Origin: a virus
Lineage: Duplodnaviria > Heunggongvirae > Uroviricota > Caudoviricetes
Length of the DNA: 9,540 nucleotides
Strand: one strand, 5' to 3'
IMG/VR virus record: IMGVR_UViG_2534681979_000013
The notes under the pieces were generated by a model that was not told the DNA's origin, did not search any database, and saw only the letters and a list, made by a program, of their open reading frames with translations. The position numbers and the translations under genes were made by a program. Shown piece after piece: positions 1-9,540 of this stretch (the stretch's first letter is position 1; every line of letters starts with the position of its first letter).

Positions 1-167
1 CGGTGGGAACGGGCTACTGGTTCCTGCAGTTGCTGGACAGGGTTTCCCCGTCTCAGTGGGCGGCAATAGGCGTGCTGGGGAGTCTGCTGTTTGGGCTGCT
101 GACGTACCTGACGAACCTGTATTTCAAAATCAAAGAGGACAGGCGTAAGGCGGCACGGGGAGAGTAA
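1..167 (+). CDS. S: Class II holin (phage-21 / lambdoid S-type), C-terminal part; 5' end lies outside the window
   Basis: The frame ending at TAA 165-167 translates to ...[51 protein letters not shown]: a hydrophobic transmembrane segment followed by a highly charged tail. The stop lies 4 nt upstream of the endolysin ATG. Matches my recollection of the ~71-aa S holin of Stx-type lambdoid phages. Confidence 0.8.
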
Positions 168-171
168 GCTG

Positions 172-704
172 ATGAGCAGGAAACTCCGCTATGGTTTATC
201 AGCGGCCGTTCTGGCGCTGATTGCCGCAGGCGCTTCTGCGCCTGAAATCCTCGACCAGTTTCTGGACGAAAAAGAAGGCAACCACACCACGGCATACCGT
301 GATGGTGCGGGTATCTGGACCATCTGCCGCGGTGCCATCCTGGTGGATGCAAACCTGTCGTTCCGGGCATGAAGTTGTCGAAGGAAAAATGCGACCGGGT
401 TAACGCCATTGAGCGTGATAAGGCGCTGGCATGGGTGGAGAAAAACATCAGAGTGCCACTGACCGAACCGCAGAAAGCGGGCATCGCGTCATTCTGTCCG
501 TACAACATCGGGCCTTCGAAATGCTTCACCTCAACGTTTTACCGGAAACTGAACGCAGGAGACCGGAAAGGTGCATGTGCTGAAATCCGCCGATGGATAT
601 ATGACGGCGGCAGGGACTGTCGGAACCGCTCAAATAACTGTTACGGGCAGGTATCGCGGCGTGACCAGGAGAGCGCGCTGGCGTGCTGGAGTATCGACAG
701 ATAA
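172..704 (+). pseudogene. R: SAR endolysin (T4-lysozyme-like phage lysozyme R), reading frame broken by an apparent 1-nt deletion near 345-350; may be a sequencing error
   Basis: ORF 172..372 encodes a Gly/Ala-rich signal-anchor-release segment (LSAAVLALIAAGASA) and the lysozyme catalytic triad spacing E-x8-D-x5-T (EKEGNHTTAYRDGAGIWT). ORF 369..704 in another frame continues the lysozyme fold (...PLTEPQKAGIASFCPYNIGP...). The second frame is open from 303, so the two frames overlap over 303..372. Restoring one G in GTGGATG^CAAACC gives a contiguous ~177-aa protein. SD GGGAGAG lies upstream of ATG 172. Confidence 0.8.
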
Positions 705-718
705 GCAGAATATTCTGC
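705..718. repeat. Perfect 14-bp palindrome GCAGAATATTCTGC directly after the R stop codon
   Basis: Read directly: positions 705-718 are self-complementary. Function unknown (dimeric protein binding site or small hairpin). Confidence 0.9.
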
Positions 719-792
719 TGAAAATGCCGTTGACCAACGCGAACGGATAACACGAAACCCTGCGAACTGGCAAAATTTAAGTGAGTAAAAGT

Positions 793-832
793 AAAAACCC
801 CGTTTGTTGGCAGCAAGCGGGGTTTTGTGTTT
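793..832 (+). terminator. Candidate rho-independent terminator, possibly bidirectional
   Basis: AAAAACCCCGTTTGTTGGCAGCAAGCGGGGTTTTGTGTTT: GC-rich stem (CCCCG...CGGGG extended with wobble pairs), flanked by an A tract upstream and a T tract downstream. Confidence 0.5.
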
Positions 833-923
833 CTGACCTTGAATAAGGCAAGGGAGAAATTATGGGTAGGGAGGTTCTTTCCCTGTGAGGAAGTATAAAA
901 GATTCTTTCTGAGGTTGTCCATT

Positions 924-7200: not shown

Positions 7201-7218
7201 AAATCCTGAACTTAACGG

Positions 7219-7246
7219 AACCCCGTCATCGTACGGGGTTTTTTGT
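7219..7246 (+). terminator. Rho-independent terminator after the portal gene
   Basis: AACCCCGT-CATCGT-ACGGGGTT forms a perfect 8-bp stem with a 6-nt loop, followed by TTTTTTGTTT, 19 nt after the portal stop. Confidence 0.6.
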
Positions 7247-7357
7247 TTCCGGAGATAAGCGTTCCGGGAGCGGTGCGCTTATTCGCGGGGGCAGCGATAA
7301 GCCTTATTTACTCAACCATTCGGATCTGTCCGATAAACAGACCATGCGGAGTTATTT

Positions 7358-8365
7358 ATGGATTTTGAATTTACGGGTGAAGAAACCCCGGAACAACTGG
7401 AAAAAATGCTGGAAGGACTTGGGGATGTGGATATTGACAGTCACGAACAGGACGGCGTGACAGAAGACACCACAGAAAAACATGCGGATGAGGAAGCACA
7501 GACACAGACGGGCGATAACAATGCGGCACCGACGCCGGATGCCAGTGCGGAGCAGACGCAGGACGTGAAGGAGCCGGAAGCGAAGGGGGTGCTCACCCGC
7601 GACGGTAAACACGTCATTCCCTATGAAGTCCTTGAGGCTGAACGTTCCGGTAAGCAACGGGCCGAACAGGAAGCCGCACTTCTTCGGGGACAGATAGCCG
7701 AAGAAAAACGCAGGGTGGAACTGCTGACGTCTCAGATCCACCAGGCCGGTATGAAACCCACACCGTTACCGGAAAACGAAAAAATCTCTGATGAGAAGAT
7801 TGCCCGTATCAGGGAGATGTATCCGGAAATTGGTGACGCGGTGGCTTCGCTCATCCGTAAAAATAACTATCTCCAGTCCCGTGTTCAGCAATCAGCACAG
7901 CAGGCAGAAGGTAATGGTGGTGAGGATTTATCACCGGTTCTTGATGCGATGAATGCCGTGCCGGTGCTGAAAACGTGGCAGAACTCCGATCCGGATCGCT
8001 TCTCGGTTGCCGTATCCATCGACGGGAAGCTCCAGAATGACCCCGCATGGAAAGACAAACCGCTCACTGAACGTTTCGCCGAAGTGGCCCGCCGTACGCA
8101 GCTTGCTTTCGGTGAAGCCAGTGAGCCGCCTTCTGATGACAAGGCAGACAACACGGATATCCGGAAAACTGCGGAAGAAAAAGTGAAAGCCGCTGAACGG
8201 GAGATGGCAGTGCCTGCTTCCCCGTCAGAGCTTGGCAACACGGCTTCCGTCGGAACCGGTGATAATTTTGAACGGTTACTTGGTGCTTCCCATACCGAAA
8301 TTGAAGCAGCCATGCGAGGCATGACGGACGCTGAAATTGACGCGATTCTGGAAAAACTCGGGTAA
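7358..8365 (+). CDS. Scaffolding protein (335 aa, acidic, coiled-coil)
   Basis: Located between portal and coat. Highly acidic N-terminus (MDFEFTGEETPEQLEKMLEGLGDVDIDSHEQDG...), Glu/Lys/Ala-rich helical segments and low complexity. SD GGAG lies upstream of the ATG. Confidence 0.7.
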   Translation: MDFEFTGEETPEQLEKMLEGLGDVDIDSHEQDGVTEDTTEKHADEEAQTQTGDNNAAPTPDASAEQTQDVKEPEAKGVLTRDGKHVIPYEVLEAERSGKQRAEQEAALLRGQIAEEKRRVELLTSQIHQAGMKPTPLPENEKISDEKIARIREMYPEIGDAVASLIRKNNYLQSRVQQSAQQAEGNGGEDLSPVLDAMNAVPVLKTWQNSDPDRFSVAVSIDGKLQNDPAWKDKPLTERFAEVARRTQLAFGEASEPPSDDKADNTDIRKTAEEKVKAAEREMAVPASPSELGNTASVGTGDNFERLLGASHTEIEAAMRGMTDAEIDAILEKLG

Positions 8366-8387
8366 CCACTGAAGGAGTACTGACGTA

Positions 8388-9540
8388 ATGACCACAGTAA
8401 CAACAGCCCAGGCGAATAAGCTGTATCAGGTGGCGCTTTTCACGGCTGCCAACCGCAACCGCTCAATGGTGAATATACTCACTGAACAGCAGGATGCACC
8501 AAAAGCAGTTTCGCCTGACAAGAAAAGCACGAAGCAGACCAGTGCCGGTGCACCGGTTGTGCGAATCACGGACCTCAACAAACAGGCCGGTGATGAAGTG
8601 ACGTTCAGCATCATGCACAAACTCTCTAAACGTCCGACGATGGGGGATGAGCGCGTTGAAGGCCGTGGTGAAGACCTCAGCCATGCTGATTTTTCCCTGA
8701 AAATTAATCAGGGCCGTCACCTGGTGGATGCGGGCGGACGTATGAGCCAGCAGCGTACGAAGTTCAACCTGGCATCCTCTGCCAGAACGCTGCTGGGTAC
8801 GTACTTTAACGACCTGCAGGACCAGTGTGCGATAGTGCATCTTGCCGGTGCCCGCGGTGATTTTGTTGCTGATGACACCATTCTGCCAACGGCAGATCAC
8901 CCTGAATTCAAAAAATCATGATCAACGACGTACTGCCGCCGACGCATGATCGTCATTTTTTCGGTGGGGATGCGACGAGTTTTGAAGGTATTGACCAGTC
9001 TGACCTGTTCACCCTTGCGCTGGTCGATAATCTCTCGTTGTTTATTGACGAGATGGCTCATCCGTTACAACCGGTACGCCTGTCCGGTGATGAGCTGTAT
9101 GGCGAAGATCCGTATTACGTCCTCTACGTCACGCCGCGTCAGTGGAATGACTGGTACACCTCCACGTCCGGCAAGGACTGGAACCAGATGATGACGCGTG
9201 CCGTAAACCGCTCAAAAGGGTTTAACCATCCGCTGTTCAAAGGCGAATGTGCGATGTGGCGCAATATTCTGGTCCGTAAGTATGCGGGGATGCCGATCCG
9301 TTTCTATAAGGACTCAAAGGTCCTTGTATCGAAAAACGATATGGCAGCAACCACAGAGGAGAAGCAGGCCAAGACCAACATCGACCGTGCCATGCTGCTG
9401 GGGGCTCAGGCGCTGGCGAATGCGTACGGCCAGAAGGGCGGCGGCCACTTCAACATGGTTGAGAAGAAAACGGATATGGATAACCGTACTGAGATAGCAA
9501 TCAGCTGGATCAACGGTACTGTAAAAACTCCGGGGGGGGG
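8388..9540 (+). pseudogene. Major capsid (coat) protein, 3' end outside the window; frame broken by an apparent 1-nt deletion in the A6 run at 8910-8915; may be a sequencing error
   Basis: ORF 8388..8921 (177 aa) ends ...TADHPEFKKS*. A different frame is open from 8906 through the window end and was translated by hand as IMINDVLPPTHDRHFFGGDATSFEGIDQ...GQKGGGHFNMVEKKTDMDNRTEIAISWINGTVKTPGG. One extra A in TTCAAAAAATC joins the two (...PEFKKIMINDVLPP...). SD GAAGGAG lies upstream of ATG 8388. Position after scaffold fits a coat gene. Confidence 0.7.

Follow-up and report, generated by a model that had tools for sequence, protein, structure and literature searches.

The stretch of DNA analysed here (IMG/VR virus record IMGVR_UViG_2534681979_000013; 9,540 nucleotides, hereafter the window) is the late region of a short-tailed 933W-like (Sepvirinae) lambdoid phage, in which the first-pass annotation had noted single-base losses in the genes for lysozyme (R), the terminase large subunit (terL) and the coat protein. 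We conclude, with a probability of about 0.96, that the window is a low-quality draft, namely a chimeric consensus of two prophages of the Escherichia coli O104:H4 outbreak strain overlaid with Ion Torrent insertions and deletions (indels), and not a biological set of pseudogenes. The apparent feature is not real, and it holds no biological novelty.

An exact-protein look-up with the portal protein identified the window (1..9540, + strand) as the entire contig AFOB02000339.1 of assembly GCA_000215685.3. Published papers (including PMC3140518) assign the AFOB accessions to LB226692, an E. coli O104:H4 isolate from the German outbreak, and AFVR to TY2482. Sequencing of LB226692 was performed on Ion Torrent's Personal Genome Machine (PGM) only, in ten 314-chip runs of 65 cycles; the reads were mapped onto strain 55989 using TMAP, the SAMtools consensus was broken at gaps, and MIRA assembly (backbone and de novo) and a CAP3 merge followed (Mellmann et al. 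2011, PMC3140518). Homopolymer errors were corrected by hand by these authors in 51 of 1,144 core genes (PMC3140518). The source of the window is a flow-based 2011 draft left unpolished by any other chemistry (AFOB02000339.1; PGM 314 chips only).

Among finished E. coli genomes and phage records, the best identity over the whole window was 95.3%, even though the clone is represented by many finished genomes. The contig was compared with two loci of the closed outbreak genome NC_018658.1, the Stx2 prophage (3.278-3.289 Mb) and a second prophage, referred to as prophage 2 (~2.550-2.560 Mb). Against the Stx2 prophage, the contig has no mismatches over 1601-3200 and 4201-5600 and dense mismatches at both flanks, and these flanks are 98.8-99.2% identical to prophage 2. 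Positions 1491-2388 align to the Stx2 prophage only. A three-way comparison yielded 757 alignable differing sites, at which the contig carries the Stx2 allele (361 sites) or the prophage-2 allele (396 sites) and never a third base; every substitution has its origin in one of the two parents. The alleles form long blocks, from prophage 2 at 330-1233 and 7982-9445 and from the Stx2 prophage at 1470-5775, the last of these with a handful of isolated bases from prophage 2 between 3386 and 3797. One crossover lies inside the spanin gene Rz, where the prophage-2 run extends to 1233 and an Stx2 run covers 1470-3212.

The source switches 64 times along the contig, in some cases at adjacent bases (5775/5776, 6420/6421 and 7467-7469). 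The late regions of the two prophages are ~85-100% alike in their aligned parts, depending on the segment, and the finest alternation, at 5775-6687 and 7417-7913, is found where the copies are most alike. Alternation as fine as this marks a consensus called by majority vote among reads of two collapsed paralogues, not a real molecule; two paralogous copies are present in NC_018658.1, with switches in the contig lying closer together than the length of a read. Prophage 2 was sought in strain 55989, the mapping backbone, as a possible explanation of the collapse; this strain was not among the 25 matches at 98.8% or better. Two of the encoded proteins are affected directly. The portal, with alleles alternating over 5775-6687, is identical to each parent at 694 of 714 residues, and the scaffold open reading frame (ORF), with alternation at 7417-7913 that includes 7467/7468/7469, matches the Stx2 copy at 311/335 residues and the prophage-2 copy at 326/335. 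Because the portal is a hybrid of two parental genes, it stands as a singleton in the protein collection, occurring on this contig only among 153 billion gene positions.

Lesions were defined by gapped alignment to phage P13374 together with local three-way alignments against both copies in NC_018658.1. The private differences of the contig comprise four single-base deletions, a T insertion, a T8G11 block and a ragged contig end, and nothing else (Table 1). These amount to six private indel events, as against zero private substitutions, in the aligned body. The deletions are A7 to A6, A6 to A5, A5 to A4 and GG to G. Runs of five or more hold ~3% of the window's bases and three of the four single-base deletions, a distribution with a chance of ~1e-4 if deletions were even per base. 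The losses in R, terL and coat that had been noted earlier were confirmed against both copies in the closed genome. Their description as homopolymer-type shortenings holds for terL (A6 to A5) and coat (A7 to A6) but not for R, in which the site is a GG dinucleotide and not a long homopolymer. As a result of these lesions, the lysozyme ORF is divided into 172-372 and 369-704, the terL ORF is divided into 3351-4145 and 4142-5056, and the coat ORF 8388-8921 ends prematurely.

The first-pass annotation had described the affected genes as otherwise intact, with no premature stops, IS elements (insertion sequences) or larger deletions. After repair there are indeed no premature stops, and no IS element is present in the window; however, the 20 nt added in the terminase small subunit gene (terS), the deletion at 721-724 and the corruption of the last 23 bases had not been listed. 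The claim of otherwise intact genes fails, since T8G11 and the extra T together cause a +20 nt frameshift in terS that replaces the last 33 amino acids. The portal and scaffold ORFs are open, but each is an in-silico hybrid. When the terS segment was used as a 321-base query, the 15 best matches each spanned 301 bases, that is, the query minus the 20 inserted bases. The T8G11 junction had no exact match in a genome-contig collection that does not include this assembly as species representative, and this negative is accordingly silent on the source. At the contig end, the bases at 9518, 9522 and 9528 are wrong, G9 occupies 9532-9540, and the coat frame is shifted again.

With the missing base restored, R, terL and coat had no in-frame stops, and the parental proteins were recovered. 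Repaired terL was identical to that of the Stx2 prophage (568/568), as was terS after removal of the 20 nt (268/268); repaired coat was identical to the prophage-2 coat (376/376), and repaired R matched the prophage-2 lysozyme at 175 of 177 residues. In both parents the annotation shows genes of full length, namely lysozyme (534 nt), terS, terL (1707 nt) and coat (1215 nt). Programmed frameshifting or phase variation was rejected, as each reference gene is one continuous ORF. In a base-by-base inspection of both prophage copies, none of the contig's indels was present in NC_018658.1; the three indels that the first-pass annotation had wanted checked in accurate data are thus not reproduced there. 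Other finished O104:H4 genomes gave match scores identical to those of NC_018658.1, 17 finished genomes were 100.0% identical across 10 kb of late region in prophage 2, and no sign of the lesions was seen in the finished O104:H4 genomes among the matches. The marks of decay that were looked for in the contig, private substitutions and stops remaining after repair, were not found. The earlier attribution to uncorrected flow-based or long-read error, rather than natural decay, is therefore upheld by an Ion Torrent-only draft and by indels missing from the finished outbreak genome. The accompanying suggestion that the prophage may be functional needs rewording: the window represents not one prophage but a consensus of two, and both of these parents have intact late genes.

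The pattern of lesions agrees with the platform. According to Bragg et al. 2013 (PMC3623719), the PGM under-calls long homopolymers, its high-frequency indels tend to be deletions of C/G in 2-3-mers and insertions of A/T, indels are about ten times as common as substitutions, and assemblies suffer frameshifts in consequence. As expected of flow-based error, the indels of the contig are not reproduced in the finished outbreak genome and far outnumber substitutions. According to a literature look-up, first-generation PGM runs follow a simple stepwise four-nucleotide cycle. We infer that T8G11 and the contig end are noisy read tails that end in an over-called G flow. Under TACG, which we take to be the specific PGM flow order, the contig end and the true sequence remain in register over 47 flows, five of which differ (A0->1, T0->1, A7->5, C0->1 and G1->9). 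Of the five other cyclic orders, TAGC does equally well and the remaining four differ in 9-18 flows. Under TACG, ...GACC-T8-G11 corresponds to the true ...GACC-A-G with T0->8, A1->0 and G1->11, after which the correct AGCCAG follows again. T8G11 was also considered as a reverse-strand read tail, a reading rejected for its 26-29 differing flows. The block is probably a miscalled read tail that was retained in the consensus.

On this evidence, two processes produced the window. The two paralogous 933W-like prophages of the outbreak genome were collapsed by mapping, MIRA and CAP3 given ~100-nt reads, with the consensus following prophage 2 (330-1233), the Stx2 prophage (1470-5775), base-by-base flips between them (5775-6687 and 7417-7913) and again prophage 2 (7982-9445). 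Flow-call errors were added to the collapsed consensus, as under-calls (A7 to A6, A6 to A5 and A5 to A4), the loss of a G from a 2-mer and the over-calling of a T, and two noisy read tails remain, T8G11 inside terS and G9 at the contig end. The assembler would have kept a junk tail, and both tails would be artefacts of flow space.

Several points weigh against this account. TACG cannot be told from TAGC by the comparison of flow orders, to which the terS tail contributes no information. Read straight through, the contig gains one entire flow cycle over the true sequence from T8G11; for this reason the block is not one simple flow glitch, a candidate that we rejected, and it needs the extra assumption that a junk read tail was kept beside the correctly read overlap. 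The paper describes an assembly that precedes version AFOB02, for which the exact pipeline may differ. The finished genomes are those of other isolates of the same clone and not demonstrably of LB226692 itself, and a literature search found no paper naming both HUSEC2011 and LB226692. Finally, the comparison was made between assembled sequences.

Among other explanations, replication slippage could have cost a decaying cryptic prophage one base each in R, terL and coat, which would make the three genes genuine pseudogenes. Natural slippage likewise favours homopolymers, in keeping with the three deletions in runs of five or more, but full-length genes stand at these sites in both copies of the finished genome, the other finished genomes score identically, and the sequence that bears the lesions is not a real molecule. 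Moreover, spontaneous substitutions outnumber indels roughly tenfold in E. coli, and six indel events with zero private substitutions are the reverse of this ratio, which argues against true pseudogenes. P13374, a phage of this lineage, establishes lysogeny in a new host and converts it (PMC4178420), and the Stx2 parent is therefore functional. We consider genuine pseudogenes extremely improbable. Contamination, with the contig derived from a different strain or phage co-sequenced at low coverage, is at first sight suggested by the low identity of the whole window to anything public (95.3%), as if it were a foreign phage; yet all 757 variable sites carry a resident-prophage allele and none a foreign one, and this explanation retains next to no probability.

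The mosaic itself could be real. Lambdoid prophages sharing a cell do recombine, and the long blocks (330-1233, 1470-5775 and 7982-9445) taken alone could resemble the outcome of recombination, so that LB226692 might carry a third, recombinant prophage, or might have undergone gene conversion between its two prophages, with sequencing errors added on top. Against this stand the 64 switches and the single-base alternation (5775/5776, 6420/6421 and 7467-7469), which is far below the scale of conversion tracts. In addition, no such mosaic is found in any finished O104:H4 genome, where the best whole-window match is 95.3%, and the hybrid portal occurs on no other contig in the collection of 153 billion gene positions. 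A real recombinant is accordingly very unlikely, although it is the least unlikely of the alternatives. A variant of this idea, in which the base-by-base mix of alleles reflects real heterogeneity of the LB226692 culture, with ongoing gene conversion giving the hybrid portal and scaffold and only the indels being artefactual, is slightly harder still to credit.

Gene identities were obtained from the ORF listing and comparison with annotated records, and scanning the repaired proteins against Pfam and PHROG confirmed them (Table 1). The window contains a holin-lysozyme-Rz cassette followed by terS, terL, a P22-type portal, a scaffold and an N4-gp56-type capsid, as is characteristic of Sepvirinae (933W-like) late regions, and its gene order is colinear with phage P13374. 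The nesting of Rz1 within Rz is the usual lambdoid arrangement. In the N-terminal region of terS, a 12-nt tandem repeat (2680-2732, 4.4 copies) encodes IDHE/TDHE-like repeats; several indels distinguish the two O104:H4 prophages in this stretch, which looks like a naturally length-variable linker. The C-terminus of the portal contains a Gln-rich low-complexity stretch, QQQQAQEQQQQELQ, at 6890-6940, with compensating 3-nt indels between the prophage alleles.

Table 1. Genes and lesions of the window, listed by contig position.
Feature	Position	Strand	Evidence or remark
Class II holin, 3' part	3..167	+	Pfam Phage_holin_2_1; holin annotation in both parent prophages
Lysozyme R, mostly prophage-2 allele	172..704	+	Repaired 177 aa: Pfam Phage_lysozyme 5e-25
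GG read as G, in R	349 (surviving G)	+	GATGGC -> GATGC; both closed-genome copies GATGG
Intergenic A5 read as A4	721..724	+	A5 in both closed-genome copies
Rz i-spanin	982..1497	+	Pfam Phage_lysis 7e-39; crossover from prophage 2 to Stx2 prophage
Rz1 o-spanin, nested in Rz	~1259-1444	+1 frame	Lipobox LLGVSAC, Pro-rich tail
Rha-family regulator	1700..2251	+	Pfam Phage_pRha and ORF11CD3; segment exclusive to Stx2 prophage
terS, Stx2-prophage allele, as read in contig	2544..3332	+	PHROG 370 terminase small subunit, 4e-125
T8G11 block, 19 nt, in terS	3252..3270	+	Missing from both parent copies
Extra T (zero-flow over-call), in terS	3277	+	Missing from both parent copies
terL, Stx2-prophage allele, split	3351..5056	+	PHROG 2 terminase large subunit, 1e-53
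A6 read as A5, in terL	4138..4142	+	GGGAAAAAA in both parent copies
Portal ORF, open, in-silico hybrid	5056..7200	+	Pfam P22_portal; alternating Stx2 and prophage-2 alleles
Scaffold-position ORF, in-silico hybrid	7358..8365	+	Alternating Stx2 and prophage-2 alleles
N4-gp56-type major capsid (coat), prophage-2 allele	8388..9540	+	Pfam Phage_capsid_3 3e-77; frameshifted, cut by contig end
A7 read as A6, in coat	8910..8915	+	A7 in both parent copies
Ragged contig end	9518..9540	+	Matches neither parent; 3 wrong bases, shortened A run, G9

These results concern data hygiene only, and no loss of phage function can be inferred from the window. The contig, a public GenBank entry from a famous outbreak strain, contains R, terS, terL and coat with frameshifts and encodes portal and scaffold hybrids that no organism possesses. 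Sequences of this kind enter protein databases, as illustrated by the singleton cluster of the hybrid portal, inflate pseudogene counts, and can mimic prophage decay or recombination.

Compared with the PGM error profile (PMC3623719), the contig shares the under-calling of long runs, the loss of C/G from a 2-mer, the gain of A/T and a large excess of indels over substitutions, and the decay of quality towards read ends likewise fits. Unlike the errors described there, the 19-nt T8G11 is far larger and also needs an assembler artefact. With P13374 and the O104:H4 Stx2 prophage (Sepvirinae, Oslovirus; NC_018846.1), the window shares the order holin, lysozyme, Rz, Rha, terS, terL, portal, scaffold and coat, and, with the artefacts set aside, hardly any mismatches to the Stx2 prophage occur over 1470-5775, the few that do being prophage-2 alleles. 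It differs from both in lacking ant and ORF53 between R and Rz and in carrying prophage-2 alleles in R, the 5' part of Rz, the 3' parts of portal and scaffold, and coat. The overall identity to P13374 and the Stx2 prophage is only 95.3% because of these alleles of the other prophage. In the Stx2 phage, ant and ORF53 are inserted between lysozyme and Rz (1479-2197 of the retrieved stretch L001); at 790-1110 the window has instead, as in prophage 2, a different segment of 320 bp that contains a small hypothetical ORF.

Prophage 2 is 98.7% identical to the window over 1-1490 and 99.2% identical over 6800-9532, and differs from it by ~6% in terS, terL and the 5' part of portal. Where the contig and the Stx2 prophage have Rha, prophage 2 has a gene for a lipopolysaccharide (LPS) core heptose(II)-phosphate phosphatase, located between Rz and terS (NC_018658.1 2551685-2552266, minus strand); this gene is a possible moron whose product could modify the host LPS core. 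As a whole, the window corresponds to collapsed-repeat or chimeric short-read contigs, in which two paralogues are merged in the same manner into a consensus of alternating alleles, and from which it shows no substantive difference.

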